DNA of 64,000 nt, taken from positions 4,422 to 68,421 of the forward strand of contig JAJAYZ010000038.1 of the NCBI GenBank assembly GCA_027118455.1, given 5' to 3'. A program made the translations under genes and the position numbers. Source of the DNA: Actinomycetes bacterium. Its GTDB lineage: Bacteria; Actinomycetota; Actinomycetes; JAHEKZ01. This document shows positions 2,035 through 57,551 of the stretch, in pieces. The notes under the pieces are model-generated. The model saw only the letters and a program-made list of their open reading frames with translations, ran no database searches and was not told the DNA's origin. Within the stretch, counting starts at the first letter, position 1. Each line of letters starts with the position of its first letter.

Positions 2035-3510
2035 CTACTTGACGGCGACATTGCCGCTGACCGTGGTCGCTGAGTTGACCCCGAACCACTGCGGGTAGTC
2101 GCGGTTCTCCACGCCCATGGTGTTGTTGACAATCCGGACACCTGTCGTGGTGTACCCGTTCTTGTCGAGAGCGAAGACGTACTTTGCAGCTCGACCTCGG
2201 ATGATGTTGTCCGCGATCACGACGTCGCTGATGTTGCCAAAGCCGGCCACCAGCATGAACGCAGAGGTCTGGTAGCCCGATCCGTCTCCGTAGGGCGACT
2301 TGCCGGTATTCGTACCGGCCACCTGGCCCTTGGCGAACGACCAGGTATCAAAGCGGTTGTGCTGGAACACCATGTGCGATCCCTTGGTGGCCTGCACGCT
2401 GTCGTTGTGCGTCATGCCGCTGGTTTGGGCAGAGTCGGTCGTGTAGAAGAGGTCATGGATCCAGGTGTCGCGCACGTCCACGTTGCCTTCAGCCTTCAGC
2501 CCGTCGATCGTGCCGAGTATCTCCACACGCCGGAGGGTGTAGTTCGAATACTTCAGGGCCGACCCCTCACTGACTCCCTGCGGGTTACCCAGCGTGCTCA
2601 ACCACATGCGGAAGTTCGAGTGGGTATTGGTGGTCCCACCCCAGACCCTGCTGCACTTGACGGTGACATTGTCGTGGTCGATGTACAGGCGGCCGGTGAT
2701 CTCGACGTTCGAGATGACCTGACCGTTCTGGGTGGTGCGAAGGTCACCGTCGATCTTCTTGAGCTGCGCTGACGCTGGCACTCCGGTGGTCTCGGCGTCC
2801 GGATAGCCGGTGAGGGGCGGCGGAAGCTCGTTGCTGGCGCACAGATCGGTGTTCGTGGTCGGAGAGGGGCTGGGGGTCGGGGTTGGGGTAGGTGACGCTG
2901 TGCTCGGCGTTGGGGTGGGAGTAGAGCTCGGAGGGGGTGAGGGGGGTGCGCTCGACGAGGCGGAGGGACTCGGGGTGGGGCTGAGGGGCGGCTGGTCTCC
3001 TGTGCCAGTAGCTGCCGACCCGGACACCTTGAACTTCGTCGTCGTTGAGATGGAGAAGCCATTGCTGAACTGCGCGAGCGCGATCACCTGGTGATCGCCA
3101 GCGGAGAGGCCAGCAAGGTGCCAGGGGTTAGCGGTGCCTTGAGTCGCGCCCAACATGTCAAACTCGGTAGTCACCGGTGCGCCATCGACGTGCTCGGCTA
3201 CTGCCGTGTGGTCCGGAGTCCCGCTTCCGGGCCGATCGACCCAGAACCGAACCTCGGTGGCGCCGGGCACCGTCGCGAACACGTAGATGTCGGTGCGGTC
3301 GACCATCCCGACCAGACGCCCAGCGTTGCTGTGATCGGCAGACAGGCTGAAGTTGAGCCCGACTCGCGCGGGACTCGACCCAAGAGCCGCAGGGACGGCG
3401 ATGGCGATGGCGAGCGTTGAGACCACGAGATAGGCGATGACCGTCCATCGCTTTTCGGTGGCTCCTGAGATCAACTGTGCGGCGCGGCCGTGAGTCACGT
3501 GGTGCTCCAT
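2035..3510 (-). CDS. Membrane-anchored exported protein: Ig-like domain, Pro/Thr/Ser-rich linker, right-handed parallel beta-helix (pectate-lyase-like fold)
   Basis: 491 aa. There is one N-terminal TM (WTVIAYLVVSTLAIAIAVPAALG). A long PT linker follows (PSPSASSSAPPSPPPSSTPTPTPSTASPTPTPTPSPSP). The C-terminal region has repeating beta-helix rungs (NVEITGRLYIDHDNVTVKCSRVWGG..NIIRGRAAKYVFALDKNGYTTTGVRIVNNTMG). Confidence 0.65.
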   Translation of the reverse strand: MEHHVTHGRAAQLISGATEKRWTVIAYLVVSTLAIAIAVPAALGSSPARVGLNFSLSADHSNAGRLVGMVDRTDIYVFATVPGATEVRFWVDRPGSGTPDHTAVAEHVDGAPVTTEFDMLGATQGTANPWHLAGLSAGDHQVIALAQFSNGFSISTTTKFKVSGSAATGTGDQPPLSPTPSPSASSSAPPSPPPSSTPTPTPSTASPTPTPTPSPSPTTNTDLCASNELPPPLTGYPDAETTGVPASAQLKKIDGDLRTTQNGQVISNVEITGRLYIDHDNVTVKCSRVWGGTTNTHSNFRMWLSTLGNPQGVSEGSALKYSNYTLRRVEILGTIDGLKAEGNVDVRDTWIHDLFYTTDSAQTSGMTHNDSVQATKGSHMVFQHNRFDTWSFAKGQVAGTNTGKSPYGDGSGYQTSAFMLVAGFGNISDVVIADNIIRGRAAKYVFALDKNGYTTTGVRIVNNTMGVENRDYPQWFGVNSATTVSGNVAVK

Positions 3511-3729
3511 CAGGGGAGACGAGAATTTGTCTCTGCAGACTTCGACTACGCAAAATCACCCCTGAAGGCCGCTCGACGAACGTCACCCGTTTGCCGTCGT
3601 CATTTGTGCCTAGTCTCGATGCGCCGTCCTCCGAATGGGTGGTGAAGGCATTGATGGAACCGTTACAAATGCCGCGATTCACCCGCTCGTGCTGCTCATG
3701 AGTAGCATTGGGGGAGAGGTGGGTGGCTA

Positions 3730-4905
3730 GTGAAAAACGAACGTGCCGAACGAGATCGCAGACCCTTGACGGTCATGATGGTGTCGTACGCCTCTGCCCT
3801 GGGCGGTGCCGAGCGGAGTCTTTTGACTTTGGCGACTCACCTCGGTGTACGCGGCGTGAATCCGATACTCGTGTGCCCAGATGGCCCGCTTGCCGACCGA
3901 GCTTTGGGACTGGGGCTGACCGTTGCTCGCAGTCCCCTTTCGGCCCCCCGTCGGGTGAGTCGCCGCCGATCCACGGGCAAGAATTACTCGCCAACAGCAA
4001 TGGCTGCCCGCGGCCGTAACAGTCTCAAGGACTCTCGATTGCTACGTCGAGTGGCCGTTGAGCACGGCGCCGACCTGCTGCACAGCAACTCGCTACCCGG
4101 ACATCTGCCCACCGCGCTAGCTGGTCGTCTCGCGCGGGCTCCGGTGGTGTGGCACCTGCGCGAGATCGTCGAGCCTGGCCCCGGCCGGGAAGTGTTGTCC
4201 CTCATGGGCCGGCTCACGGAGGGCATGGTGGCGATCAGCGACGCTGTTGCGGCGTCCGTACGACACCCCCGCGTGTGGACGGTGTACAACCCGGTTTCGG
4301 AACCACCAGCCGTCGTTGCACGACCCACGTGGTCATTGCCCAAACCCCTGGTCGGCTATCTCGGGCGCATTGATCCCAGCAAAGGTATCGAGCACCTGAT
4401 CGTCGCGGCCGGACTCTTCAGCGCGGAAGTCGCCATCGTGGGAGATCTGGATGCGGCGCAGCCTGACTATGTCGCCAGCCTGCGGGCCTTGGCTGGGCGT
4501 CACGCTCCCGAGCATGTCCATTTCATGGGGGCGGTCGAAGAGCCATGGGGTGCCTTGGCAGAGTTTGACGTGCTGGTCGTGCCTTCGCTGGCCGAGCCTT
4601 TCGGTCGGGTGGCTGCTGAGGGCCAACGCGCAGGAGTGGTGGTAGTCGCGGCCGGTGCCGGTGGCCTCCCCGAGATCGTCACCGATGGGGAAGACGGCCT
4701 TATTTACCAGCCAGGCGATCGCGTAGCCCTGGCCAAGTCGGTCGAGAGCGTGCTGGCCGCCCCAGCGCTGGCCGAACGGCTGCGGTCGGCGGGCAAGGTG
4801 AGCTCGGAACGATTCGACCCCAGCCAGCACGCCGATGCGATGGCAGCGATCTTCAACGAGTGCGTTGGTCCTGATTCCCGCCCGGCCCCGAGAGGTGGCC
4901 GATAG
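3730..4905 (+). CDS. Glycosyltransferase family 4 (GT-B, retaining)
   Basis: The C-terminal GT4 motif EPFGRVAAEGQRAGVVVVAAGAGGLPEIVTDGEDGLIYQPGD is present. GTG start at 3730 with an upstream GGAGAGG. It is divergent from the beta-helix gene. Confidence 0.85.
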   Translation: MKNERAERDRRPLTVMMVSYASALGGAERSLLTLATHLGVRGVNPILVCPDGPLADRALGLGLTVARSPLSAPRRVSRRRSTGKNYSPTAMAARGRNSLKDSRLLRRVAVEHGADLLHSNSLPGHLPTALAGRLARAPVVWHLREIVEPGPGREVLSLMGRLTEGMVAISDAVAASVRHPRVWTVYNPVSEPPAVVARPTWSLPKPLVGYLGRIDPSKGIEHLIVAAGLFSAEVAIVGDLDAAQPDYVASLRALAGRHAPEHVHFMGAVEEPWGALAEFDVLVVPSLAEPFGRVAAEGQRAGVVVVAAGAGGLPEIVTDGEDGLIYQPGDRVALAKSVESVLAAPALAERLRSAGKVSSERFDPSQHADAMAAIFNECVGPDSRPAPRGGR

Positions 4906-4981
4906 GATCGTTGGGCTTGTTGGTGGCCTTCATTTGCCGCGTAAGGCCGCACGGCTCATGTTTGACCTGAGGGGAATCTGA

Positions 4982-6127
4982 ATGAGAAGCGTCATGGTGA
5001 CGAAGTTTGTGCCGTATCCGGCCAATGCTGGTGGAAGGATCCGCTCCCTCGCAATTCTGCGTCGGCTGCTGGACCAAGGGGAAGTTGTTCTCTGCTGCTT
5101 TGACGACGGCTCGTCGGATGCTGCCGAACTGCGTCGCCTTGGCATTGATGTTCGAACCGTCCCCTGGGACACCAGCGTGCCCAACGTCGTACGGGGTATC
5201 GCGAAGGCCCACAGTGGCTCGGCGGGTAGGTTCTGGGACCGGCGACTTGCCGCACTGGTCCGGCGGGCCTGCGCTGAGCAGCCAGCGGATCTGCTTCAGG
5301 TCGAGTACTCGCAGCTGGCTCCCTATCTTGACGTCGGATCTGCCCGACTCAAGGTCCTTGACTTCCACAACATCGAGTCATCGCTCGCGTTGAGCTTTGC
5401 GCGTAGCTCACGTGAGCTCAAAGCTTGGCTCGCCTATCCCGAGTCGGTCCTGCTTCGACGACTGGAGAAGAAGGGCGCAGAACGGGCAGATTTAGTCCTG
5501 GTGGTCAGCGAGGAAGACCGACAGCGTCTCCCCGGTCGTCCCCGTGAGGTCTTGGTCTGCCCCAACGGTTGGGACCCGGGTGAAGTTCTCCCTGCGTCGA
5601 CCGAACCCGTCGCTGCGTTCGTTGCCTTAATGGGCTGGAAACCGAACTCAGACGCTGCGGTCTGGCTGGCTCGTGAGGTTTGGCCGCTGGTCCGAGCTTC
5701 TGTCCCGGATGCGCGGCTTCTCCTGGTCGGGAGAGAGCCTGGTCGGGTGGTAACCGACCTTGCGGCACCGGACATTGAGGTGACCGGCACAGTTCCCGAG
5801 ATCGCGCCCTACTTGCAGCAGTCGATGGTGGCCTTGGCTCCGCTGTTGTCAGGAGGAGGGACCAGGCTGAAGGTTTTGGAGGCACTCAATTCCGGCCGAC
5901 CCCTGGTTTCTACGAGCGTCGGCATTGACGGTCTCACCGACCTGATCGGCAAGGGGGTCTTCGTGGGTGACAGTCCTGCGGATTTCGCCAAAGAGATCGT
6001 CGACCTCTTCGGCGACCCCGAGCGGGCCAGAAAAGCCGGGCTCGAAGGGGCCGAAGCGGCCCGCACCCACTACTCCTGGGACGGCACGCTTCGTTCCTGG
6101 AGCGAGAGAATTTCTCGATTGAAGTGA
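4982..6127 (+). CDS. Glycosyltransferase family 4
   Basis: 381 aa. The N-terminal GT-B Rossmann half starts MVTKFVPYPANAGGRIRS. The C-terminal part has LKVLEALNSGRPLVSTSVGIDGLTD..GVFVGDSPADF. Confidence 0.85.
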   Translation: MRSVMVTKFVPYPANAGGRIRSLAILRRLLDQGEVVLCCFDDGSSDAAELRRLGIDVRTVPWDTSVPNVVRGIAKAHSGSAGRFWDRRLAALVRRACAEQPADLLQVEYSQLAPYLDVGSARLKVLDFHNIESSLALSFARSSRELKAWLAYPESVLLRRLEKKGAERADLVLVVSEEDRQRLPGRPREVLVCPNGWDPGEVLPASTEPVAAFVALMGWKPNSDAAVWLAREVWPLVRASVPDARLLLVGREPGRVVTDLAAPDIEVTGTVPEIAPYLQQSMVALAPLLSGGGTRLKVLEALNSGRPLVSTSVGIDGLTDLIGKGVFVGDSPADFAKEIVDLFGDPERARKAGLEGAEAARTHYSWDGTLRSWSERISRLK

Positions 6128-6131
6128 GACT

Positions 6132-7550
6132 TTGACGAGCGCGGTCCCCCTGGTTGCCGGCGGCATCCTCGTCGTTGGGTTCTTCGCCGCATGTCTGCGC
6201 TGGGAGCGACAGGGGCGAAGCGAACTGGCCGTCGTGACAATCCTCGCGGTGCTGGTCGCCGATGTGGTGCTGTACGCAGAGACCTCGTCGGCGTCGCTCG
6301 TCAGCGTCATGCAGCCGCGCCTGGGTGGTCAAGGCCTTCGACTGGTACAGCTGGCAGTGCTCGTGGCGCTGGCTGCACGCTTCCTCGTGCAGGGCATCCC
6401 CCGAAGGTGGGTGAGGTCGACGCCGCTATGGCTGGGGTTCTTCGTCTGGGTGGCTGCATCTGGGGTCGTCGGCTACCTCCAAGGTCACACGCCTCCCCTG
6501 ATACTGCGCCAGGCCATGATCATCCCCATGATTGGCGGAGGAATGCTGCTGATCGGTGGGGTTCAGGCCCGCCAGTACGTGCAGAGCGTTGCGCTTCGGC
6601 GGCTGTTCGGCGGGGCAGCTGTCGCCGCTTCCCTTCTGCTCATCGTGGACACCTTTGGGTCGACGCTCACCACCAACGCCATCCCCGGTCTCCCCGTGCA
6701 GTCCTTCGGGCTCTATGGCGCCGATGCCGGCACCGTCTTTGCGGGCCTGGGGATGGTCGGTTTGGCCATCGGTCTGTATTCACCCAAAGGAAGTCGGGAC
6801 CGAGCTCTCTGGCTGGTCCCCGGCGTTGTTCTGATGCTCAGCCTGTTCGCGACGTCTCAACGTGCGGCGCGCCTCGGCCTCTTCGTAGGTTGCGTGATCC
6901 TGGCCGTCGCCGCACTGACAGCCGTTGGTCGGCAGAGGTTCCTCTTCAACCGGCGGGCTTTTCTGCTGGGCGCGCTGGGGACTCTAGGTGTTGTCTTGGG
7001 GATCGCCTTCGTGGCGGCAGCTGTCAACCCATGGGAGCACACCGAGAACAGGACATCTGCGACTCCTGACTTCAAGAACCCGTTCGCCGCAACCAGTCGA
7101 GAAGGGTCCATCCTTTCTCGCTATCACCAGTGGGACGTTGCCCGGGACCAGATCTTGGCTGCCCCCTTCATGGGCGGGGGACTTGGTGGGACAGCTCGCC
7201 ACTTCGAAGAAGGGTCAAAGGAGGTCGTTGAAAGCGACATCTTCCACAACATCGGTCTCGACCTATTGAGTCGACTCGGGTTGGTGGGCTTCCTCCTGGC
7301 GGTCGGCGCCGTTGTCGCTCTCTCGCTCGAGACGATTGATGTATGGCGACGGGATCAAGACAACCTCGTGGCTGCCCTCGCCATCGGTGGTCTGGCGACG
7401 ACCGGAGGGATCCTGGCCAAAGGGATGGTCGAGTCGGTGTTCGAAAAGGACCGGCTTGCCGTTCTTATCGGGGTCGGACTGGGATTCATGGTCAGCGCAG
7501 TCTTGACGCACCACTCGACACGTCAGGCCGCTCTGGAGAATCGAGGCTAG
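6132..7550 (+). CDS. O-antigen ligase / polymerase family (Wzy_C) polytopic membrane protein
   Basis: 472 aa with about 11 predicted TM helices and one large extracytoplasmic loop. The loop contains the ..IFHNIGLDLLSRLGLVGFLL.. block characteristic of Wzy_C. TTG start abuts the upstream GT4 stop. Confidence 0.75.
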   Translation: MTSAVPLVAGGILVVGFFAACLRWERQGRSELAVVTILAVLVADVVLYAETSSASLVSVMQPRLGGQGLRLVQLAVLVALAARFLVQGIPRRWVRSTPLWLGFFVWVAASGVVGYLQGHTPPLILRQAMIIPMIGGGMLLIGGVQARQYVQSVALRRLFGGAAVAASLLLIVDTFGSTLTTNAIPGLPVQSFGLYGADAGTVFAGLGMVGLAIGLYSPKGSRDRALWLVPGVVLMLSLFATSQRAARLGLFVGCVILAVAALTAVGRQRFLFNRRAFLLGALGTLGVVLGIAFVAAAVNPWEHTENRTSATPDFKNPFAATSREGSILSRYHQWDVARDQILAAPFMGGGLGGTARHFEEGSKEVVESDIFHNIGLDLLSRLGLVGFLLAVGAVVALSLETIDVWRRDQDNLVAALAIGGLATTGGILAKGMVESVFEKDRLAVLIGVGLGFMVSAVLTHHSTRQAALENRG

Positions 7551-7683
7551 ACACCCCGCGTGTCTGCCGAATGGGGGAACTGCTGCTCATCGCAGGAGTT
7601 CTGACGCGGGCCGCCAGGCTGCCGGGTACCGTTGGCCTGGAATCATGCGACGTCAACGCGGGCGATCAGGGAAGAAGAGGGAG

Positions 7684-9546
7684 ATGCACGTGCCAACGGC
7701 ATCTCCGGTCCCAGCGAGTCCAAACACGGTGACTCCCGACGACGCCCCTCCCGCGCGCAGGGGGCGAGCAACGCCGCTTCGAGTCGCGCGTGACATGCGA
7801 GCTGCCTGGCGACGAACCGCCCCATTTTTCGGCGCTTCGCGTGGCGCGATTTTGGCCCTTGCCGCCGCATCACTGCTCGGGGGCCTTGCGGAGGCTGTTC
7901 TGCTCACGCTGATCGCCGCCGCGGCAAACGCCATCGCGCTCGGAGAGTCAGAAGTCGAGACTGGACTGGGCCCGCTATCTGTCAACGCGGGGCTCTCAAC
8001 TCTGTTCGCGATTGGCATCGGTCTTGCGGTCCTGCGAGGCGCACTTCAGATTCTGGTGGCCTATCTGCCTGCCAAGATGAGCGCCAACGCAAACTCCGCA
8101 TTGCGCCGAAACCTGTTCGACGCGTTCACGAGCTCGTCGTGGACGGTCCAGTCGGCCGAGCGGGACGGGCATTTCCAGTCGCTCATCAACGGTCACGTGT
8201 CGCGGGCGTGCATGGCGATGATCGCCTTGGGCGCAGCCATCTCATCGTCGTTGATGCTGATGACACTGCTTGTTGCCGCACTTGCCTTGAGCGTGACGAC
8301 AGCACTCATCATCATTGGTGTCTCCGTCGGGTTGTTCGTCATCCTGAGGCCGCTCGCGCGGCGTCTGCGGGCCTACGCCACTGAGTTGAGCGCTGAGAAC
8401 GTTGAGTTCTCCAAGACCGCGCAGGAAGTGGTCCTCATGGCGGAGGAGACCCAGGTCTTTGGGGTTTCGGACTCCTACCGCCAGACCTTTTACGCCCAGC
8501 TCGAGAAGGTGCGACGCCCTTTGCTCCGTACCAGGTTCATGTCCAAGGGTCTGCCTGCGGCGTACCAGAGCCTGGCGCTACTCCTCGTTGTGGTCGCCCT
8601 TGCCATCATCTACGTCAATGGTGGCGCTGCGGTCGCATCAATGGGTGCCGTCGTGCTGTTGTTGATCCGGTCTATGAGTTATGGGCAGCAGGTACAGGCG
8701 TCCACGGCGAACCTTGATGAGCTGATCCCCTTCATGTATCGCCTTGGGGATGCCATGGACTATTACAGGGCAAACCCGCGCCAGGCCGGTGACCAGCCGG
8801 TACCTGATGTCGAGCGGATCGGACTGCGCGACGCGCACTTTGCCTACGTCCCGGGTGAAGACGTTCTTCGGGGGATCAGCTTCGAGGCGGTGACCGGGGA
8901 GGCCGTCGGGATCGTCGGGCCATCAGGGGCCGGAAAGTCCTCGTTGGTTCAGCTTCTCCTTCGCCTGCGTGACCCTGATTCCGGAATGCTGTTCGTCAAC
9001 GACTGCGATGCTCGTACGTTGGAGCTCTCTGGCTGGCAGCAGCAGGTCGCCTACGTGCCGCAGACTCCTCAGCTGATCTACGGGACCGTCGCTGAGAACA
9101 TCAAGTACTTCCGTGAGCACCTGTCGCGAGCTGAGATCCAGCGGGCCGCGGAGCGGGCGCACATCCACGACGAGATCATGTCGTGGCCGCAGGGATACGA
9201 CACGATCGTGGGTCAGCGAGCCTCGGCTGTTTCGGGTGGACAACGCCAACGATTGTGTCTGGCCAGAGCCCTGGCGGACAGCCCGCGCGTCTTGATTCTC
9301 GACGAGCCCACGAGTGCTCTCGATGTGAAGTCAGAGATGCTCGTGCAGGAGTCGCTGCGTGAGCTCAAGGGCGAGGTCATCTTGTTCCTGGTGGCACATC
9401 GCCTGTCGACCTTGTCGATCTGCAATCGCGTGATGGTCATCGTCAATGGACTCTTGGAGGCTATCGGTGAACCAGAGTCGCTGGTGCTGACCAATGACTT
9501 CTACCGGGAAGTGACGGAGATCACCCACAAGCAGGCGAATGCATGA
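7684..9546 (+). CDS. ABC transporter, fused permease/ATPase (MsbA-like exporter)
   Basis: An N-terminal 6-TM domain precedes the NBD. The NBD has Walker A GPSGAGKSS, signature LSGGQRQRLCLARAL, Walker B VLILDEPTSALD and H-loop VAHRL. The start is uncertain; the ORF opens at 7645, and the ATG at 7684 follows GAAGAGGGAG. Confidence 0.85.
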   Translation: MHVPTASPVPASPNTVTPDDAPPARRGRATPLRVARDMRAAWRRTAPFFGASRGAILALAAASLLGGLAEAVLLTLIAAAANAIALGESEVETGLGPLSVNAGLSTLFAIGIGLAVLRGALQILVAYLPAKMSANANSALRRNLFDAFTSSSWTVQSAERDGHFQSLINGHVSRACMAMIALGAAISSSLMLMTLLVAALALSVTTALIIIGVSVGLFVILRPLARRLRAYATELSAENVEFSKTAQEVVLMAEETQVFGVSDSYRQTFYAQLEKVRRPLLRTRFMSKGLPAAYQSLALLLVVVALAIIYVNGGAAVASMGAVVLLLIRSMSYGQQVQASTANLDELIPFMYRLGDAMDYYRANPRQAGDQPVPDVERIGLRDAHFAYVPGEDVLRGISFEAVTGEAVGIVGPSGAGKSSLVQLLLRLRDPDSGMLFVNDCDARTLELSGWQQQVAYVPQTPQLIYGTVAENIKYFREHLSRAEIQRAAERAHIHDEIMSWPQGYDTIVGQRASAVSGGQRQRLCLARALADSPRVLILDEPTSALDVKSEMLVQESLRELKGEVILFLVAHRLSTLSICNRVMVIVNGLLEAIGEPESLVLTNDFYREVTEITHKQANA

Positions 9547-10544
9547 GCTCATCGCCAGCTCCTGCCGGACGCTTTTCGGATTCTTCTGAACACACCGATG
9601 TCATGGGTGCAGAGTTGGTTTCGATCGCCTTGTGCCTGATCACGTACCGCCGGCCGCGCGGCCTGGGCCAAGCGTTGCAAGGTGTAGGCGGCCTCGAGGT
9701 GGACCCGTCAGAGGTTGACCTGCGACTGGTCGTGGTCGACAACGATCCCTCGGGTTCAGCTGAAGACGTTGTGAAGGACTTCGCGTCGAGGAGTGTCTAC
9801 CCGGTGGCGTATGCGGTCGAACCACAGCAAGGAATCCCTTTCGCGCGCAATCGTGCAGTCCAGCTGGCCGGCGACGTCGATTTCATCGGATGGCTCGATG
9901 ACGACGAGGTGCCCATCGCGGCTTGGCTCAGCTTGCTCGTTGCTGCGTTGCGGTGCAGCCGCGCCGACGTTGTCCTTGGACCATCGGAGCCCTCCCTGCC
10001 AGCCGGCGCCGCTTCCTGGATCGCGGCTGGAGGTTTCTTCGACCGGACGCGGTTCCCTTCGGGCACCGTCATCCCCGCGCACTATGCCCGGACGAGCGGT
10101 GTTCTCGTGCGACGGGCCGCGATGCCCGCCAGACAGACCGCGTTTGTCGAGGAGCTTCGCTTCACGGGTGGATCCGACCGTGAGCACTTCGTAGCGATGG
10201 AGAAGGCTGGTGCCACCTTCGTCTGGGTCGACGAGGCCGTCGTGGTGGAGAAGGTCCCCGAGTCTCGGGCATGCTCGGGGTGGATTCTTCGTCGGGCGTT
10301 CCGGATCGGAAACAGCCGAAGCATCACGTTGGTTCTTCAACACCCGCCCATGGGCAAGCGGGTGAAGCGGGTGGGCGCCGGGGCCACGAAGATGGTGACT
10401 GGATCCTTCGCGGCCCTGGTGGGACTGCCCCGAGGCAAGGGAGCGGCCATGCAAGGACTCTGGAAGACCTGCTACGGAGCTGGGCTGGCTTTCGGAGCGC
10501 TCGGGTATCGATACGACGAGTACCGGAAGCACCACGGGGGATGA
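9543..10544 (+). CDS. Glycosyltransferase family 2
   Basis: LITYRRPRGLGQALQGV..LVVVDNDPSGSAEDV and later DDDE match the GT2 DXD region. The ATG overlaps the ABC gene stop (ATGA), so the two are translationally coupled. Confidence 0.75.
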   Translation: MSSSPAPAGRFSDSSEHTDVMGAELVSIALCLITYRRPRGLGQALQGVGGLEVDPSEVDLRLVVVDNDPSGSAEDVVKDFASRSVYPVAYAVEPQQGIPFARNRAVQLAGDVDFIGWLDDDEVPIAAWLSLLVAALRCSRADVVLGPSEPSLPAGAASWIAAGGFFDRTRFPSGTVIPAHYARTSGVLVRRAAMPARQTAFVEELRFTGGSDREHFVAMEKAGATFVWVDEAVVVEKVPESRACSGWILRRAFRIGNSRSITLVLQHPPMGKRVKRVGAGATKMVTGSFAALVGLPRGKGAAMQGLWKTCYGAGLAFGALGYRYDEYRKHHGG

Positions 10545-11404
10545 CGACGTCGCCGGGTCGACTGCCGACCTTTCTCATCATCGGTGCCATGAAGTCCGGA
10601 AGCACCACGCTCTATAACCACCTGCGTCAGCATCCGGAAGTAATGCTTCCCGACTACAAGGAGCCGGAGTTCTTCGTCGAGGAGAAGAACTGGTCGCGTG
10701 GAGTTGACTGGTATCGGAGTCTGTTCATCGGAGCAGGCGAGGTCACAGCGGTAGGCGAGGCGTCTACCAGCTACACCAAGTTCACTGAATTCGGGGGGGT
10801 ACCCGCTCGGATTGCATCGGTCCTGCCAGACGTACAACTGGTTTACGTGCTCAGGGAGCCCATCTCGCGAATGCGTTCGATGTACCAGCACCAGGTGCTC
10901 ACTCGTAGCGAGTCCCGGCCGATCAATGAAGCGCTCCTCAAGGACGACCGCTACCTGGGCCCTAGTCTCTATGCCGAGAACGCACGCCGTTACCTCGACT
11001 ACTTCCCCAGGGACCGGTTGCATTTCCTGCTGACCGACGATCTCCAAAAGGACCCATCAGCAGCTGTGCGAGGGGTTACCGAGTTCCTTGGTCTACCGGA
11101 CACTCCCGACTTCGTACCGACCGAACGTGTCGATCTGCGGACGAGCGACCGTCGGGCCGACCGTCGGATCAAGTCGCGTGTGAGGGGCCTGGCTGCCGTC
11201 GAGGTCGGATTTCGCAGGGCACCCTCGTCGGTGCAGAACCTGCTTCGCAGGGTGGCAACGCGTCCTTCAACCGCGAGTGGTCCCACCGAGTTGGACCCGG
11301 CAACGGTCGAGGTGTTGCTGGAGAAGGTTCGGCCCGACTTGGAAAACCTCACCAGGATGCTCGGACCCCAGTTCGATGCATGGGGGCTGCTCGACCTCCC
11401 CTGA
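10541..11404 (+). CDS. PAPS-dependent sulfotransferase family protein
   Basis: 5'-PSB loop FLIIGAMKSGSTTL and 3'-PB motif YVLREPISRMRSMYQH are present. The ATG at 10541 overlaps the GT2 stop (ATGA). The ORF track extends the frame upstream to 10271 but that part overlaps GT2 and is not credible. Confidence 0.8.
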   Translation: MTTSPGRLPTFLIIGAMKSGSTTLYNHLRQHPEVMLPDYKEPEFFVEEKNWSRGVDWYRSLFIGAGEVTAVGEASTSYTKFTEFGGVPARIASVLPDVQLVYVLREPISRMRSMYQHQVLTRSESRPINEALLKDDRYLGPSLYAENARRYLDYFPRDRLHFLLTDDLQKDPSAAVRGVTEFLGLPDTPDFVPTERVDLRTSDRRADRRIKSRVRGLAAVEVGFRRAPSSVQNLLRRVATRPSTASGPTELDPATVEVLLEKVRPDLENLTRMLGPQFDAWGLLDLP

Positions 11405-11480
11405 TGTGGGGTGATCAGCCTTGACGAAAGGCACGGCGGCCGACGACAGCTAGACCTACGCTAGACGGGCGGGCCGCACG

Positions 11481-12344
11481 ATGTGGCCGACGACCAAAGG
11501 GGAACCTGTGAAGCTTGAGCAGCGGCTGCGTGGAGCTGTGGCGCCAGGCGCCCGTACCGTGCTCGGAGCGTTGGGGCTTCACTCGGAGCCGAACTTCTTG
11601 ATCATCGGAACGCAAAAGGGCGGGACGACGTCGCTGTACGAGTACTTGATCCAACACCCACGGGTGTGTGCAGCTCGCCGCAAGGAGATCCACTACTTCG
11701 ACCGGTTCGAGAGCCTTGGCTGGGACTGGTATCGCAGTCAGTTTCCGCTCGCCGCGGCGCGACCTGGTGTTGTCACCGGCGAAGCCACGCCCTACTACTT
11801 GTTTCACCCAGACATCCCGCGCAGGGTCGCGGCTGCACTTCCTGAGGTGAAGCTGATCACGGTTTTGCGCAACCCCGCGGAACGTGCTTACTCCCACTAC
11901 CAACACTCGCTGCGGCACGATGTTGGGCTCAAGAGCTTCGAAGATGCCTTGGAGGTGGAGCGAGAGCTCTTGGCCGATCATGGTCTCGAGGAGGGTTTCT
12001 ACGATCGCGACGACTGGCATCGGCACTCCTATGTCACCAGGGGTTACTACGCCGATCAGCTGGAGCACTGGTTTGATCAGTTCCCACGCGGCCGACACCT
12101 CGTGCTCACCAGCGAAGACCTGCGGACTGACCCGGCGACGCAGATCGAACGGGTCGTCGCCTTCCTGGGGCTTCCCGAGTGGCAGCAGGCGACGTTTCCC
12201 TCCCACCATCGCGGTGGCTACTCAGTCGAACCTGGCGATCGTGCGGCCCTCGCGGAGCTTCGTACCCACTATCGGCCGCACAACCAGCGGCTCGGCGACC
12301 TGCTGGGCCAGCACTTTTCACGGTGGGACGACCCCGGCGCCTGA
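11481..12344 (+). CDS. PAPS-dependent sulfotransferase family protein (paralogue of the preceding gene)
   Basis: 5'-PSB FLIIGTQKGGTTSL and 3'-PB TVLRNPAERAYSHYQH are present. Length and architecture are the same as 10541-11404. Confidence 0.8.
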   Translation: MWPTTKGEPVKLEQRLRGAVAPGARTVLGALGLHSEPNFLIIGTQKGGTTSLYEYLIQHPRVCAARRKEIHYFDRFESLGWDWYRSQFPLAAARPGVVTGEATPYYLFHPDIPRRVAAALPEVKLITVLRNPAERAYSHYQHSLRHDVGLKSFEDALEVERELLADHGLEEGFYDRDDWHRHSYVTRGYYADQLEHWFDQFPRGRHLVLTSEDLRTDPATQIERVVAFLGLPEWQQATFPSHHRGGYSVEPGDRAALAELRTHYRPHNQRLGDLLGQHFSRWDDPGA

Positions 12345-12787
12345 CCCCGGCGTGTCGCCCGGGCATCGAGAGCGACACCATCGACAGTAGATGCTGGTGG
12401 GGGCCACTCGACCTGGAGCCGACTCATGTTCGACGCTGGTGCTGTTCTTGTTCTCGCCATTGTTGGTGGCGTGTGTGAGGTCGGGCTCGGGCTTTTGGTC
12501 GGTGGCATGATCGCCCACGGACAGCGTCACTCGCCATCGCAGTGGGAGTCGCACCTGGAGGGAAGTACTTTGAGTAACCGGACAGTCACCGAGCGCTAGC
12601 GAGCGTCGGTGGTCCCGGCCGAGATTGGCCGTTGGTCACTGCACACCCGGTCATTAGGGCATACTGAAGCGGCGCGCCGGCTCAGCTGTCCAGTCACTTC
12701 TGGTCTGTCCGGGTTCGCTCCCGCAATACTCTCGATCAGTGGTCAGCGCTCATACGCGTGCGTTCAGTCACAGCGAATGACAAGGGG

Positions 12788-14866
12788 ATGAGTCACCTGA
12801 GCAGGACTGACCGTCAACGGTCGACAGCACGAGGCACCTTTGGTGCTGGAAGCGCACGACGGGCCATCACCATGGCGACGGCCGCTCTGGTGGCGACGAC
12901 GGGTCTGATGGCCTTGTCTGCACCGGCTGGTGCTACCACTGCCCCGACGACGTATCAAGACCATGTCTATAGCAGTTCCGCCAGCGCACCCTCTTCGGAC
13001 AAGCCCCAGAGCAAGCTCTGGTTCAACGACGGATCCTGGTGGGCGTTGATGCTGGGGTCCTCGAGCGTGAACGTCTACCGCCTGATGCCCGACCACACTT
13101 GGCAGGACACCGGGACGGTCGTAGACACCCGGGCCACCAGCACCGGCGACGCGCTGTGGAGCAATGGAAAACTGTATGTGGCCAGTCGTACCGCTGGGAC
13201 CACAGGCAAGATCCGCATCTACCGCTTCTCCTATTCGGCTACCACCAAGAAGTACACCAAGGACACCGGCTTCCCGGTCTACATCGGCGGCGGTGGTGTC
13301 GAGAGTGTCACCATCGACAGGGACAGCCTCGGCCGGCTCTGGATCACATTCACCCGCGACAAGGCGGTCTGGGTCAGTCACACCACTATCTCCGATGCCG
13401 CCTGGCGCACGCCGTTCCGGATTCCAGGCTACGAAACGGACGGAGTGGCCGCTGACGACATTTCTGCGCTGGTCAGCCTCGGTGGGAAAATTGGGGTTTT
13501 CTGGTCTGACCAGCAATCAGGAAAGTTCAAGTTCGCACTTCACGTTGACACAGATCCCGACACAGTGTGGACGGGGGAGGTTCCCTTTCAAGGCTTCAAC
13601 ATCCCTGACGACCACATGAACATGAAGTCGATGCTTGGCGATGACCAGGGCCGACTGCACATCGCTGTGAAGACGTCGCTCGGTGACAATGGCGAGCCTC
13701 CCGAATCGCCTGGAGTCATTCTCATGACGCGAACGGCAGCAGGGGTTTGGTCCCAGGTGACGGTCGCCACCAAGGGCGACAACCTGACCCGCCCACAGGT
13801 GGTGCTCGACCGAGCGCACCAAGAGCTCACTGTGCTCATGTCCGATGAGTTCGGTGGGAACATCTACTCGAAGACCACGCCCCTCAACAACATCGCGTTC
13901 GCCCCTGGCAAGGGTGACGTCTTCATGTCATGGCCTGGCGCGGCGCTCAACAACGTCAGCACCTCGAAAGACCCGGTCAACGCGACGACGGGAATCGTCG
14001 CCATCGCGACGTCCAACACGGGCAACCGCTACTACCACGCCGAGATGCCCATCGATCCCGTTGCGGATTTGGATCCGCCATCTGTCGTGTCGATGTCACC
14101 CATCGACGGTGCAACAGGCGTGACGTCCACGGTGAGCCCAACGGTGACGTTCTCCGAACCGATGGACCCCAGCACCATTGACGCGAGTGCGTTCACCTTG
14201 GGTGGTCCCTCCGGCTCGGTCGCTGCGAACGTCACCTACGACGCCGCGTCCCGCGTCGCGACCCTCGATCCCACTGCGTCGCTTGCTGCCGGCGCGCCCT
14301 ACACCGCCACGATGAGCACGGGGGCGAAGGACCTGTCCGGGAATGCTCTGCCGGCCCCTTCGATCTGGAGTTTCTCTACCGGCGGAACTGCTGGCGAGAC
14401 AGTGAGCCTCACTCCCACTGCAGACGCGTACGTTTCGAGCGGGGCCTCGTCTTCGAACTTTGGTACGCAGACGTCGCTGATGGTGGACGGAAGCCCAGAC
14501 GTCAAGAGCTACCTCAAGTTCGACCTATCCAGTGTGGCGGGCCGCACGATCCAGTCAGCGTCCCTCTCGGTGCCTGTCACGACAAGCGGATCGGTGGGCA
14601 CTCAGAGTGTCCGGCTCACCGTGAAGGACACCTGGACCGAAGCCGGCATCACCTACGCAAACCGAGTTGGCCTCGACGCAACGGTTGGCACCTTCGGACC
14701 AACGGTGGGCGCCACGACCTACGCGGTGCCGTTGAGCCCCTCAGCCCTGCAGCCCAAGGTTGGCGGCCTCCTCTCCCTGGCGATCAGCTCGTCCAGTGGC
14801 GACGACGTCATCTTCGGCTCTCGGGAAAGCGCCCCGCCCACGCAGTTGGTTCTGGTTCTGCAGTAG
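12788..14866 (+). CDS. Secreted protein: N-terminal beta-rich domain, bacterial Ig-like domain, C-terminal beta-sandwich (carbohydrate-binding-like)
   Basis: Signal peptide MATAALVATTGLMALSAPAGA. An Ig-like segment reads PPSVVSMSPIDGATGVTSTVSPTVTFSEPMDPSTIDASAFTL..AGAPYTATMSTGAKDLSGNAL. The C-terminal part has a YLKFDLSSV motif. ATG at 12788 follows AAGGGG; the ORF opens at 12758. Confidence 0.6.
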   Translation: MSHLSRTDRQRSTARGTFGAGSARRAITMATAALVATTGLMALSAPAGATTAPTTYQDHVYSSSASAPSSDKPQSKLWFNDGSWWALMLGSSSVNVYRLMPDHTWQDTGTVVDTRATSTGDALWSNGKLYVASRTAGTTGKIRIYRFSYSATTKKYTKDTGFPVYIGGGGVESVTIDRDSLGRLWITFTRDKAVWVSHTTISDAAWRTPFRIPGYETDGVAADDISALVSLGGKIGVFWSDQQSGKFKFALHVDTDPDTVWTGEVPFQGFNIPDDHMNMKSMLGDDQGRLHIAVKTSLGDNGEPPESPGVILMTRTAAGVWSQVTVATKGDNLTRPQVVLDRAHQELTVLMSDEFGGNIYSKTTPLNNIAFAPGKGDVFMSWPGAALNNVSTSKDPVNATTGIVAIATSNTGNRYYHAEMPIDPVADLDPPSVVSMSPIDGATGVTSTVSPTVTFSEPMDPSTIDASAFTLGGPSGSVAANVTYDAASRVATLDPTASLAAGAPYTATMSTGAKDLSGNALPAPSIWSFSTGGTAGETVSLTPTADAYVSSGASSSNFGTQTSLMVDGSPDVKSYLKFDLSSVAGRTIQSASLSVPVTTSGSVGTQSVRLTVKDTWTEAGITYANRVGLDATVGTFGPTVGATTYAVPLSPSALQPKVGGLLSLAISSSSGDDVIFGSRESAPPTQLVLVLQ

Positions 14867-14883
14867 CGGTTCCCCGGCTTTCC

Positions 14884-15813
14884 TTACGGTTGCTTGGTAC
14901 CTTCTGGCGGTGGTGCCGAGCGACTTTCACTGAGTTTGGCGAGTTGTCCGTAGGTGCGCAGCACACGCACGTAGGAGAATGCCGTCGCGTACCGGATCTT
15001 GTCGTCGCGCCGGACTGGCTCCGCGGCATGCCAGACCCTGCGCCAGACTGCAGTCCCGGCTCGTAGGTCAGAGAGTGCGGCCCGTGCCAGAGCGCGCTTT
15101 CCGCCAACACCACGGTGTTCGGCGAGCCCCCGTCCCACCCGCAGCGCCTTGCGACCGAGATCTGTCCAAGTCGTACGCGCCGGATGTTCGACGAGCGCGA
15201 GGGGCGCGTAGCCCAGCTTGCCGCCGCATCCTCGAAGACGGTGGCACCACTGCATGTCACCACCGGAACGGAGCGACGAGTCGAAGGGACCAACCTTGCG
15301 CATGGCGTCGGCGCGGACAAAGAGATTGGCGGTCACCGCGAAGCCGTCGCGCTCGATGTAACGCTGTTGGGGGAATCCCTCGACCGATTCGAAGATCTCC
15401 GGAGCGGTCTTCGGCCGGTCACCTCGAAAGGTCATGCGCACGGCCCCTCCTACAGCATCGCAATCGCTGGCGCGCAGGGCGACGATCCCTTCGGCTAACC
15501 AATCTCTGGCCGGAGTGCAGTCAGCATCGGTGAAAGCAAGGACTTCTCCGGTCGCTGCGGCCATCGCGGTGTTCCTGGCTGTGTAAGAGCCCGGACGTGG
15601 TTCGTGGAGCAGCACGAAGCGTGGGTCGTTGGGCATGGATTCTGCAACATCAAGGGTGGATCCGTTGTCGACGACCACCACGAGGACTCGGTCGGGCCGG
15701 TAGGTCTGGTCGAGCAGCGCTTCCGTGCAACGCCGCAAGCCATCTGGGTCGTCGAACACAGGAATCACGACGGTGACGTGCGGATCTTCGGCCATGCAAT
15801 GCACACAACTCAC
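14884..15813 (-). CDS. Glycosyltransferase family 2
   Basis: VTVVIPVFDDPDGLRRCTEALLDQTYRPDRVLVVVVDNGSTL and a downstream FTDADC (DXD) are present. It lies 24 nt downstream of the kinase-like gene on the same strand. Confidence 0.8.
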   Translation of the reverse strand: MSCVHCMAEDPHVTVVIPVFDDPDGLRRCTEALLDQTYRPDRVLVVVVDNGSTLDVAESMPNDPRFVLLHEPRPGSYTARNTAMAAATGEVLAFTDADCTPARDWLAEGIVALRASDCDAVGGAVRMTFRGDRPKTAPEIFESVEGFPQQRYIERDGFAVTANLFVRADAMRKVGPFDSSLRSGGDMQWCHRLRGCGGKLGYAPLALVEHPARTTWTDLGRKALRVGRGLAEHRGVGGKRALARAALSDLRAGTAVWRRVWHAAEPVRRDDKIRYATAFSYVRVLRTYGQLAKLSESRSAPPPEGTKQP

Positions 15814-15837
15814 GAGTGAATCATCACTGAACGATCC

Positions 15838-18114
15838 CTAGGCTGCTTTCGCTCGAGCACGCGCCCAGCGCGAGAACGTGCGGCCGGTCGCTCGGCGTGT
15901 GGTTCGCGCCCCCAATCGAACCTGTCCTTGGATGCGGCGTACTGGTCCGCGAGGTCCTAGGATCGCCCGTTTGGTTCGAAACACGGCGCGGCTCGTGTGC
16001 TGCGACATCGGCGAACCGGATGTGAGCTGGTCTGCCGAGAGCCCGGTGAATGCGAGCCATCGGCGCTCGTAGGAGAGATCGCTGACGGGTAGGTCGTCGG
16101 TGTATCCGGCGGGGACGCCTCGAAAGGCGTAGCTCGATGCGAAGGGTGGCCGATCGTTGGTGTACCGGTGCAGGAACTCGAAGTCGACAATCTTCAGGCC
16201 GGCTCGGTGGTCAAGGATGAAGTTCTGTGGCTTGGCGTCGACGAGATCGAAGCCGTGCTCATGGATCTGGCGGAGGACGTCAACCATGTCGCGCACCAAG
16301 GGGAGGGGCACGAGTTTCCTGGACGTCATGAGTGGTGCCAGCTGATCCCGGTAATAAGGGCAGCTGAACCAGTTGTCCCCGCTTGCGAGGAGAGGTGGGA
16401 CCGCAGCCACCTCGGGGGAGAGCTGCTGCAGTGCCAGTAGCTCTCGTTCCATGTGACGGAGGTAGCCAGCCGCGAAGGTCTTCCGGACGACCCGACCGTC
16501 CGCGCCATCGACGACCTCGACCTTGGCCCGGCGTCCTCGGCTGAGCTGCCTCACGACCGGAACGGTGGTCCGGTAATGCACTCGACGCTGGCCGACGAGC
16601 TCTTGCAGCTCCTCCGCAGCCTGGGGGAGTGCGATGGTCACGTACTCCCAGGCCTCGAGCTCGTTGTCCGACGAGTGGACAGGGTTGAATCGCTCATGCG
16701 CCGAAACCCGAGCAGCCACAAGGTCGCGGACCCGCTCCTTGGCGACGAGAACGTCGTTGTTGGACAGGCGCGGGTATTTGTCGAGTGCCTTTCCGACGGG
16801 GGGAGCCGGCGCATAATGGACGGCCACGACAACTGTTACCGGTCCGCCGCCGCTCACTGGGAAGGGGCCCTGGCCCCAGTTGCCGCCACGTGTTTGTTCA
16901 GCGCAACGCGCCGCGGCAGCTGAGTCGAGCTCAGAGGTCATCAGCACCTCGAACCCGAGGTGATCCAGAAGCGCCAGGACCTCGTCGGTGCCGACCACCG
17001 ATGCGAGTCGCTCTCTGAGCAAGAAGACGGTCGTCTCAGGTGGGATCACCGGCTCTGGCTTCGCTGCGAAGAACTTCGCCTTGATCCACAGATTCCCATC
17101 TGCGAGTCGAACGAGCGTATCCACTGACGGACGCCAGCCCTCACCTGCCAGATATTCATCAACACCGTCGAGGGAAGCATCAAGGCGTACCCCGACCGAC
17201 CGAGCCAGGGATTCGAGGGCTGACTTGTAGTCGTGCTCGGGGTCGGTCACTGTTTCAGCAACGTGCGCTGATGCCAGACCCGAGCTCATTCCCTTGTGGT
17301 AGGCGGCGTGGTAGGCAAGCGAACGGAGATGGTCCAGCGGCGCAGGAACGCGGCAGCCGCTGGAATGAACGACGGCTCGATCGAGCAGCTGACGCGCCAA
17401 CTGCGGGGGGTAGTAGGCCATGTTCTTGTAGTCCGATGACGGCAGGCCGGTTTCGCTGTACAGGTCGAGAGGGATCGTTCCTGGCTCCTCGTTCATCAGG
17501 GTTCCGAAGGCGGCCAGGTGTTCATCTGTGACCAGAACGTCGAGATCTTCGCCCGGCTCCATGTGGGGCAAGTCCTCGAACCAGCGCAGAGCTGCGTACT
17601 GGATTCCGGCGGCATCCAGACGTTGGATCAGCCCCTCTGGACCCCACACGGGCGAGAAGTACCGACGCGTCCTTGGTGGTGCCTGGCGTGAGATCTCCAG
17701 GAGGTCGAAGCGGGTTTCCCCAACATCGAACCTACCCCTGGGCGTGACCGCTCGAGAGAACCGAGCCGCGGTCTTTGCGAGTCGGGTTTCGACGTCTCGG
17801 GCGCTCCACCCGGACTCCAGTGCTACGTAGCGGACGTGGCGAAGCTCACCGACCATCCAGAGCCGTTCGGCAAAGGCGGGTCGAACGATCAGCACGTCGG
17901 TGCTGCATCGGCGGACTTGGTCCGGTGAGGCAAGCTCATGAAAGCGCCGCTCAAGGCCATCTGCCTGCGACCGGACGGTATGCAGCGCCGCTAAAGTGAC
18001 GAGTCCGAGGTAGCGGGTGACGCCATCGGAAGCCAACTCGTGCGCGAGGTCGGGACTCTCAACCCCGAAATCGAGAATGCGCGTCTCAGGTTGGAGGAAG
18101 GTGGGCAACTGCAC
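15838..18114 (-). CDS. Large multidomain protein with C-terminal APH/choline-kinase-like phosphotransferase core; N-terminal two-thirds uncharacterised
   Basis: 758 aa. The C-terminus has the ordered set RVVRKTF (Lys) .. ELLALQQL (Glu) .. FDLVDAKPQNFIL (catalytic HxDxxxxN-like loop) .. IVDFEF (DFE/DWE Mg-binding). This points to a protein-kinase-like phosphotransferase of the aminoglycoside/choline kinase type. The middle region contains GEDLDVLVTDEHL, possibly nucleotidyltransferase-like (weak). Confidence 0.55.
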   Translation of the reverse strand: MQLPTFLQPETRILDFGVESPDLAHELASDGVTRYLGLVTLAALHTVRSQADGLERRFHELASPDQVRRCSTDVLIVRPAFAERLWMVGELRHVRYVALESGWSARDVETRLAKTAARFSRAVTPRGRFDVGETRFDLLEISRQAPPRTRRYFSPVWGPEGLIQRLDAAGIQYAALRWFEDLPHMEPGEDLDVLVTDEHLAAFGTLMNEEPGTIPLDLYSETGLPSSDYKNMAYYPPQLARQLLDRAVVHSSGCRVPAPLDHLRSLAYHAAYHKGMSSGLASAHVAETVTDPEHDYKSALESLARSVGVRLDASLDGVDEYLAGEGWRPSVDTLVRLADGNLWIKAKFFAAKPEPVIPPETTVFLLRERLASVVGTDEVLALLDHLGFEVLMTSELDSAAAARCAEQTRGGNWGQGPFPVSGGGPVTVVVAVHYAPAPPVGKALDKYPRLSNNDVLVAKERVRDLVAARVSAHERFNPVHSSDNELEAWEYVTIALPQAAEELQELVGQRRVHYRTTVPVVRQLSRGRRAKVEVVDGADGRVVRKTFAAGYLRHMERELLALQQLSPEVAAVPPLLASGDNWFSCPYYRDQLAPLMTSRKLVPLPLVRDMVDVLRQIHEHGFDLVDAKPQNFILDHRAGLKIVDFEFLHRYTNDRPPFASSYAFRGVPAGYTDDLPVSDLSYERRWLAFTGLSADQLTSGSPMSQHTSRAVFRTKRAILGPRGPVRRIQGQVRLGARTTRRATGRTFSRWARARAKAA

Positions 18115-22196: not shown

Positions 22197-22216
22197 CGCT
22201 GGAGCCTAGGACAGCG

Positions 22217-24409: not shown

Positions 24410-24506
24410 GGTCTGAACCTCTCCCGGGTCGCCGTCTCGTGAACGCCCCCACCCTGCTCGCCCCGGTCGACATGGGCAAGTGACCAGTGGTCTCGATCGA
24501 AGGGGC

Positions 24507-57550: not shown

Positions 57551-57551
57551 C

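Follow-up and report, generated by a model that had tools for sequence, protein, structure and literature searches.

An uncultured soil actinomycete has two adjacent sulfotransferase genes, here called ST1 and ST2, as integral members of a conserved polysaccharide cluster that depends on polyprenyl phosphate, and both genes are intact and selectively maintained. They lie in a 64,000-nucleotide stretch of contig JAJAYZ010000038.1 (NCBI GenBank assembly GCA_027118455.1, positions 4,422 to 68,421 of the forward strand), hereafter the window. From their protein family, predicted fold, motif conservation and conserved gene order we propose, with a probability of about 0.6, that they are cytoplasmic carbohydrate O-sulfotransferases of the HS3ST/NDST class, dependent on 3'-phosphoadenosine 5'-phosphosulfate (PAPS), which decorate the exopolysaccharide made by the surrounding cluster. 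That cluster is the main clue to the acceptor and was missed by a first-pass annotation that had picked out the two genes.

Both genes are present on the forward strand in the interval where the first-pass annotation had placed two open reading frames (ORFs; Table 1), and the four motif strings it quoted are found verbatim in the two proteins. Its length of 287 aa for each holds for ST1, which is identical to NCBI MCZ3388530.1 (287 aa) and whose ATG overlaps the TGA of the upstream glycosyltransferase family 2 (GT2) gene as ATGA. For ST2, however, 287 aa is reached only by the longest ORF, and the true start is probably a conserved GTG at 11508, which gives 278 aa. The sequence AAAGGGG stands 6 nt upstream of this codon, the ST2 orthologue in one related contig (L001, 85% identical) has no start codon further upstream, and the NCBI counterpart, MCZ3388531.1, next to MCZ3388530.1, is 278 aa long. 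NCBI names both proteins 'sulfotransferase domain-containing protein [Actinomycetia bacterium]' and places them on a contig of 72,741 bp from a metagenome-assembled genome.

The class assignment follows from sequence and predicted fold. Matches to Pfam Sulfotransfer_1 (PF00685) score 58.1 bits for ST1 (E 1e-15) and 81.4 bits for ST2 (E 9e-23) at a gathering cut-off of 22, far beyond chance. The solved structures closest by sequence are 3rnl, HS3ST1/3/5 and the NDST1 sulfotransferase domain, with E values of 1e-24 to 3e-14 for ST1 and 6e-29 to 9e-22 for ST2. Searched against the PDB, an ST1-family profile recovers 3rnl (4e-49), HS3ST1 (3.5e-32) and NST/NDST1 (about 2e-26 to 3e-25), and the next class, the cytosolic SULTs, falls to 1.5e-6. 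AlphaFold2 models built from alignments of 61–62 sequences have a predicted local distance difference test score (pLDDT) of 92.2 and a predicted template-modelling score (pTM) of 0.87 for ST1, and 91.7 and 0.88 for ST2; each is a single alpha/beta domain with the sulfotransferase fold. Foldseek ranks 3rnl, HS3ST and NDST1 structures first for both models (E 4e-16 to 3e-10, target template-modelling (TM) score 0.65–0.79), with E 1e-11 to 1e-15 for the HS3ST/NDST class and no better than 5e-7 for other classes. At E ≤0.001 there are 97 PDB matches for the ST1 model and 83 for the ST2 model, and the best 50 listed for each are all of the sulfotransferase fold. By sequence and model, ST1 and ST2 are hence intact PAPS-type sulfotransferases of the heparan-sulfate (HS3ST/NDST) class.

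This bears out the HS3ST class given by the first-pass annotation, but not the Stf0 class that it offered as an alternative. Stf0 is not among the best 50 Foldseek matches listed for either model, nor among the best 60 of 63 PDB chains found by the ST1-family profile at E up to 10, and no Stf0-type Pfam family matched ST1 or ST2 at E up to 0.01. The top structural match of both models is 3rnl, a structural-genomics entry for an Alicyclobacillus acidocaldarius sulfotransferase (E 7e-15 and 4e-16, target TM-score 0.79), whose chain description gives no function. Its alignment runs the full length, C-terminal region included, although core identity is just 37–38% and the protein falls outside both subfamilies in the tree described below.

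The PAPS-binding motifs are intact, as had been claimed. Positions mapped on mouse HS3ST1 and human HS3ST3A1 through HMMER alignments are collected in Table 2. The 5'-phosphosulfate-binding (5'-PSB) loop reads IIGAMKSGSTT in ST1 and IIGTQKGGTT in ST2, and the base loops read K-E-P-E-F-F and K-E-I-H-Y-F-D, with the Glu aligned to HS3ST1 E90 and its HS3ST3 equivalent. The 3'-phosphate-binding (3'-PB) pair of both proteins aligns with 'LRDPSERVLS' of HS3ST1. The first-pass annotation had read this motif as RxxxS; the canonical pair is instead an Arg and a Ser eight residues apart (R105/S113 and R130/S138). A review defines polysaccharide sulfotransferases by the PSB Lys/Arg, the PB-helix Ser, a Glu base (HS3ST1/NST1) and SN2-like transfer (PMC11625862). 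Across the ST1 family K18, R105 and S113 are kept in 62/62 sequences and the base E41 in 58/62; position 43 is acidic in 42/62 and His in 8/62. Across the ST2 family R130 and S138 are kept in 61/61, E69 in 57/61, D74 in 54/61 and H71 in 46/61, and position 46 is K in 52/61 and R in 9/61. The catalytic Glu, whose absence the first-pass annotation had named as grounds for refutation, is thus present in both proteins, and to judge from these alignments the catalytic set of the two families is conserved under selection. ST2 also retains the HS3ST active-site pattern K...K-E-x-H-x-F-D and, at the C-terminus, the L-R-x-x-Y-x-P-x-N helix.

Neither protein has a transmembrane (TM) or signal-like segment, and the PSB loop of ST1 starts at residue 10, so that both are predicted to be soluble and cytoplasmic. 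Animal HS3ST1/3/5 and NDST1, the best solved matches after 3rnl, share the fold and the PAPS-binding motifs. However, animal HS3STs are type II membrane proteins with Golgi-lumenal topology, whereas ST1 and ST2 lack a membrane anchor. Their acceptor-side residues differ from those of HS3ST, although ST2 keeps the His and Asp (Table 2), and they are therefore relatives within the class and not HS3ST orthologues; there is no evidence of a heparan-like acceptor.

Table 1 Sulfotransferase genes and the surrounding exopolysaccharide cluster (window positions 176–18114)
Feature	Position	Strand	Size, matches and residues
Priming polyprenyl-phosphate glycosylphosphotransferase (starts lipid-linked repeat unit)	176–1693	-	Pfam Bac_transf 231 bits and CoA_binding_3
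491-aa protein with N-terminal membrane anchor, Pro/Ser/Thr-rich linker and beta-helix-like C-terminal part	2035–3510	-	One TM-like segment, residues 24–42
GT4 glycosyltransferase	3730–4905	+	Pfam Glycos_transf_1, Glyco_transf_4
GT4 glycosyltransferase (stp1-like)	4982–6127	+	Pfam Glyco_trans_1_4; NCBIfam TIGR03087 220 bits, below cut-off
Wzy/O-antigen-ligase-like membrane protein (polymerase or ligase)	6132–7550	+	Pfam Wzy_C 48.9 bits (cut-off 31.7); 12 TM-like hydrophobic segments
Fused transmembrane and nucleotide-binding domain (TMD-NBD) ATP-binding cassette (ABC) exporter, MsbA/PglK/HepA type	7645–9546	+	Pfam ABC_tran, ABC_membrane
GT2 glycosyltransferase	9543–10544	+	Pfam Glycos_transf_2; stop overlaps ST1 start
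ST1, PAPS-type sulfotransferase, XssA-like actinobacterial subfamily	10541–11404	+	287 aa; K18 (5'-PSB), E41 (base), R105/S113 (3'-PB)
ST2, PAPS-type sulfotransferase, HS3ST-like subfamily	11481–12344 (longest ORF, 287 aa)	+	K46, E69-x-H71-x-x-D74, R130/S138, numbered from 11481
Conserved 57-aa ORF, one N-terminal TM-like helix	12426–12599	+	80% identical to same-position 59-aa ORF in L001/L002
Big_5/CBM96 (DNRLRE) protein, one N-terminal hydrophobic signal-like segment	12758–14866	+	Pfam Big_5 85 bits, CBM96 82 bits
Second GT2 glycosyltransferase	14884–15813	-	Pfam Glycos_transf_2 85 bits
758-aa cytoplasmic protein, weak protein-kinase-like catalytic loop near C-terminus	15838–18114	-	Pkinase 21 bits (below cut-off), LanL kinase region 25 bits, PDB kinases E 0.006

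Table 2 Active-site positions of ST1 and ST2 aligned with HS3ST1
HS3ST1 position and role	ST1	ST2
K68, PSB lysine	K18	K46
E90, catalytic base	E41	E69
H92, acceptor side	E43	H71
D95, acceptor side	V46	D74
K123, acceptor side	A74	A102
R72, acceptor side	T22	T50
3'-PB Arg, PAPS binding	R105	R130
3'-PB Ser, PAPS binding	S113	S138

Pfam was searched with the window's ORFs of 200 aa or longer, and NCBIfam also with the genes of the cluster. The priming enzyme matches NCBIfam TIGR03025 EPS_sugtrans at 421 bits (cut-off 295.55) and a WcaJ-like family at 393 bits. The ABC protein scores 254 bits for HepA, 237 for MsbA and 153 for PglK, all below the cut-offs; because the cluster has no Wzx, it is the candidate flippase or exporter. 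All genes from 3730 to 14866 are on the forward strand, and the junctions between GT2, ST1 and ST2 are short or overlapping. A promoter and terminator scan carried little information, giving no promoters and five weak terminator-like sites, fewer than in shuffled sequences and none of them between the genes of the ST1–ST2 stretch.

Gene order is conserved beyond the window. The order ABC, GT2, ST1, ST2, small ORF and CBM96 is repeated in two Logan contigs (L001 and L002) with proteins 78–98% identical. The order ABC-GT2-ST1 is found in these two and in L005, L006, L007, L009 and L091, and in L089/L090 the ABC gene is followed directly by ST1 (73% identity). ST1 identity is 61% in L005/L006, which carry the priming phosphoglycosyltransferase (PGT), a 493-aa protein, two GT4 genes, Wzy, ABC, GT2, ST1, small ORF and CBM96, and 64–66% in L007, L009 and L091. 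The ABC protein is 68–98% identical among the orthologous clusters. ST1-like genes also lie within exopolysaccharide clusters in L004, L008 and the cultured Modestobacter marinus CPCC 205245, in which an epimerase, a PGT, an unassigned ORF, Wzy and Wzx directly precede the ST1-like gene.

Several of the accessory proteins travel with the cluster. The 491-aa protein is co-conserved in L005, L007, L009 and L091 at 51–56% identity, and no firm match to it was found in Pfam, NCBIfam or PDB sequence searches. Its Pro/Ser/Thr linker is long and its C-terminal part reads like a right-handed beta-helix; it may be an extracellular polymer-modifying enzyme. The CBM96 protein is co-conserved in L001, L002, L005, L006 and L007, with PDB matches to the 8wab DNRLRE domain and the 7vbo alginate-lyase carbohydrate-binding module (CBM), and is a candidate secreted polymer-binding or processing enzyme. 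Its N-terminal 440 aa (12758–14080) are likely the putative catalytic part; they gave no firm Pfam, NCBIfam or PDB match and a weak DUF5648 match at 18 bits. The gene for the 758-aa protein adjoins the ABC gene in L005, L007 and L009 (50–56% identity), and its sole signal is a Ser/Thr-kinase catalytic-loop stretch, 'HGFDLVDAKPQNFIL...KIVDFE'. It may act as a glycan kinase or as an enzyme that terminates chains. The 57-aa ORF has no family annotation; L005/L006 have a 64-aa counterpart at the same place with a similar 'MIA(H/Y)G' stretch.

In the pathway that we infer, including the acceptor, the regiochemistry, the timing and the actual sulfation of the polymer, the phosphoglycosyltransferase would begin a repeat unit on undecaprenyl phosphate, and four glycosyltransferases (two GT4 and two GT2) would extend it. 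ST1 and ST2 would then transfer sulfate from PAPS to different hydroxyls or sugars of this intermediate on the cytoplasmic face, or of the lipid-linked chain, with the Glu after the PSB strand acting as base and the PSB Lys stabilising the leaving group in an SN2-like transfer. Because PAPS is cytoplasmic and the enzymes are soluble, sulfation would precede export and act on a lipid-linked oligosaccharide or chain. Once sulfated, the intermediate would cross the membrane through the MsbA/PglK-like ABC protein and be polymerised or ligated by the Wzy-like protein, and the secreted CBM96 protein and the anchored protein with the beta-helix-like part would act on the polymer outside the cell. ST1 may add the ancestral sulfate, staying with the ABC exporter in related clusters, and ST2 a later, lineage-specific second one.

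Several points weigh against this proposal. That actinomycetes produce sulfated polysaccharides still awaits chemical proof (PMC13390465). The Pfam and NCBIfam scans found no Wzx and no chain-length protein in the cluster, which leaves the export route uncertain between flipping of repeat units and export of finished chains. A search of the window's ORFs of 200 aa or more for PAPS-supply genes (the adenosine 5'-phosphosulfate (APS) kinase CysC/CysNC, CysDN, CysQ) gave none; many actinomycetes assimilate sulfate via APS without the need for PAPS. Finally, the E-x-H-x-x-D loop of HS3ST is incomplete in ST1, where E43 and V46 replace its His and Asp, and both proteins have Ala at the K123 position of HS3ST1. 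The acceptor site is accordingly different from that of HS3ST and does not allow the acceptor to be predicted.

The acceptor could instead be a cell-envelope glycolipid, a secondary metabolite or a peptide, which we consider unlikely. Stf0 acts on trehalose in mycobacterial sulfolipid-1, and NodH on Nod factors; bacterial sulfotransferases with glycolipid acceptors are reviewed in PMC11625862. P0003, the nearest relative of ST2 that is not an orthologue (51%), is a lone gene in a housekeeping neighbourhood free of polysaccharide genes, so members of the ST2 subfamily do not always serve exopolysaccharide clusters. However, ST1 overlaps a glycosyltransferase gene and stays beside the ABC exporter in eight other loci, the Pfam and NCBIfam scans found no lipid, polyketide or peptide biosynthesis genes in the cluster, and no similarity to Stf0 was detected among the matches listed from the profile and Foldseek searches.

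N-sulfation of a free amino sugar by one or both enzymes, as in NDST1, is less probable still. NDST1/NST matches are nearly as strong as those to HS3ST (ST2 against 1nst, E 5e-25; Foldseek against 8ccy, E 2.5e-15), but no N-deacetylase or aminotransferase gene that could supply the free amine was found in the cluster by Pfam and NCBIfam. In a neighbour-joining tree (65 sequences, 176 core columns, 60 bootstraps; NDST not included) the ST2 subfamily groups with animal HS3ST1/3 in 42/60 bootstraps (70%).

There is also a small chance that ST1 has reduced or no catalytic activity, serving for instance as a PAPS/PAP-binding scaffold, and that ST2 alone transfers sulfate. Mutational work on HS3ST1 has found His92 and Asp95 important for activity, and these are the positions at which ST1 has Glu and Val. 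The ST1 subfamily nevertheless keeps its base Glu, PSB Lys and 3'-PB Arg/Ser at the frequencies given above, ST1 is the copy retained in every orthologous cluster, and XssA, which has the same K-E-P-x-F-F form of base loop, is genetically required for synechan (PMC8205485).

The first-pass annotation had described ST1 and ST2 as tandem paralogues and as two diverged copies. They are adjacent and homologous (36% identity across 201 aa, E 3e-31), but the idea of copies is misleading, because sequence comparison places them in two ancient subfamilies, with ST2 as a probable lineage-specific extra beside a conserved ST1. A recent in-place tandem duplication followed by divergence, compatible with adjacency, shared strand, similar length and homology, is rejected by tree, reciprocal hidden Markov model (HMM) scores and synteny: the two are sisters in 0/60 bootstraps and the ST1 subfamily is monophyletic in 55/60, HMM scores are reciprocal (407 against its own and 142 against the other subfamily for ST1; 357 and 167 for ST2), their core identity of 39% is no higher than the 40% between ST2 and human HS3ST3A1 and far below the median identity to their own subfamilies (63% for ST1, 54% for ST2), and orthologous clusters at 61–73% ST1 identity lack ST2.

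The L005 spacer before the small ORF aligns with the window spacer between ST2 and the small ORF, so the two loci differ by a clean block of ~940 bp, 11405–12344, comprising a spacer and ST2. Since six more distant loci carry ST1 without ST2, parsimony favours a gain, and ST2 probably entered the locus in the ancestor that the window shares with L001/L002, a loss elsewhere being the less likely alternative. The GC content of ST2, overall and at third codon positions (GC3), does not stand out from that of neighbouring genes and gives no compositional sign of recent foreign origin.

Both families are widespread. With one genome per GTDB species, ST1 relatives occur in at least 576 species; among those listed, uncultured Actinomycetota come closest (64% and 48%) and the cultured Modestobacter marinus (45%) and Blastococcus capsensis (42%) come next, and others belong to Cyanobacteria, Planctomycetota, Proteobacteria, Bacteroidota, Chloroflexota and other phyla. 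For the ST2 subfamily more than 1,461 cluster representatives score better than E 1e-10. At least two sulfotransferase ORFs occur within 10 kb in 22/89 loci, with tandem pairs in Bythopirellula and Botrimarina, and the two subfamilies occur together in two further loci, L004 and L026, the latter from an Actinomycetota metagenome-assembled genome (MFD02840.bin.1.302). Positions 3000–11000 of L026 hold up to five ORFs matching sulfotransferase HMMs in 8 kb, of both ST1 and ST2 types and some overlapping on opposite strands; this is possibly a locus for a heavily sulfated polymer.

Downstream of the cluster the window carries conserved actinobacterial core genes: thrS, pgsA1, a phosphatidylinositol mannoside (PIM) acyltransferase, pimA, pdxST, yebC, ruvCAB, secDF, relA, hisS, aspS and alaS. 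This conserved block has an unusual insertion (20803–24553, reverse strand) between thrS and the phosphatidylinositol-synthase/PimA genes, which holds a membrane protein with an HTTM domain, a 208-aa ORF and a 778-aa GTPase that resembles EF-G and is extended at its N-terminus. Between the yebC/GNAT genes and ruvCAB, at 32186–33637 on the reverse strand, is a DUF222/HNH endonuclease gene of the sort usual in mobile or selfish elements. At 55487–63365 (forward strand), genes for Roadblock/LC7 and DUF4388 proteins precede those for two T2SSE-type ATPases and a T2SSF platform protein; the set resembles a type IV pilus-like apparatus, possibly with regulators of the small-GTPase kind.

As biomaterials, sulfated polysaccharides are prized, and among bacteria other than cyanobacteria they are considered rare. 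Both genes were already annotated automatically as sulfotransferases, the family is very common and no concept is changed here. The main value of the locus is that it strengthens the hypothesis that soil actinomycetes make sulfated polysaccharides, and this uncultured member probably makes a sulfated slime polymer. Across soil Actinomycetota the core is an ABC exporter, a GT2 and an XssA-like sulfotransferase, to which a second, HS3ST-like sulfotransferase was probably added in one lineage. We raise more tentatively, and would not count on, a wider idea: that the window and related clusters of uncultured soil Actinomycetota and of cultured Geodermatophilaceae (Modestobacter, and a Blastococcus homologue) make a genuinely sulfated exopolysaccharide, the first to be chemically defined in Gram-positive actinomycetes, through an MsbA/PglK-like ABC exporter and a Wzy-like protein, with extra sulfotransferases such as ST2 gained modularly and tuning sulfation between close lineages. 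As a further step within this idea, the ST2 subfamily may be the nearest prokaryotic sister of the animal HS3STs, which, if true, would bear on the origin of heparan-sulfate 3-O-sulfation. The hypothesis that these bacteria make sulfated polymers is directly testable, because cultured relatives such as M. marinus carry an ST1-like gene in a similar cluster; if it is confirmed, bacterial sulfated polymers would be known from a wider range of hosts, and new regiospecific carbohydrate sulfotransferases would become available.

Bacterial PAPS-dependent enzymes known to sulfate carbohydrates or glycolipids include KpsS of Mesorhizobium loti, Stf0 and NodH, the last of the R-x-G Sulfotransfer_3 type, and several more bacterial cases are listed in the same review (PMC11625862); KpsS and NodH are likened to ST1 and ST2 by the descriptions in that review only. 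A closer comparison is the synechan (xss) cluster, for which XssA (sll5042) and XssE were taken from plasmid pSYSM of Synechocystis sp. PCC 6803. With ST1, XssA shares 33% identity (E 2e-36) in a gap-free alignment of 188 aa and has the base loop in common; with ST2 it shares 30% (E 2e-24). The gene xssA is needed for synechan, the two sulfotransferases of the cluster belong to distinct subfamilies and there are ~two sulfates per eight sugars (Maeda et al., PMC8205485). In each cluster the neighbours of the two sulfotransferases, which differ in subfamily, include a priming sugar transferase, glycosyltransferases and a Wzy polymerase (PMC8205485). However, the second enzyme, XssE, is a distant Sulfotransfer_3-type protein and not a relative of ST2. 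The xss cluster also has Wzx, a co-polymerase, an outer-membrane exporter and the XssQ/R/S regulators, none of which was found in the window cluster by Pfam and NCBIfam, and the window cluster has instead an MsbA/PglK/HepA-like ABC exporter in the flippase position. The hosts differ as well, a cyanobacterium for synechan and an actinomycete for the window. The suggestion of the first-pass annotation that two enzymes serve two sulfation positions or two acceptor sugars is, by analogy, plausible; synechan, whose two sulfotransferases come from distinct subfamilies and whose repeat carries two sulfates, is a precedent.

A parallel from another actinomycete is wps-1 of Actinoplanes missouriensis. 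This Wzx/Wzy cluster has two sulfotransferases and a kinase-like protein, and a 2026 study proposed a sulfated polysaccharide as its product (PMC13390465). By the published domain descriptions it differs in its Wzx, Wzz and GH26 enzyme and in a second sulfotransferase of the Gal/GlcNAc/GalNAc type (PMC13390465). It is alike in having, among WpsB, WpsH and WpsI, two sulfotransferases of different families, one with a heparan-sulfate domain, and the kinase-like WpsI, together with Wzy (PMC13390465). WpsI parallels the 758-aa kinase-like protein of the window. Sulfated polysaccharides of actinomycetes have so far been a genomic hypothesis, resting on Actinoplanes wps-1, and the window adds an independent example kept across several lineages.

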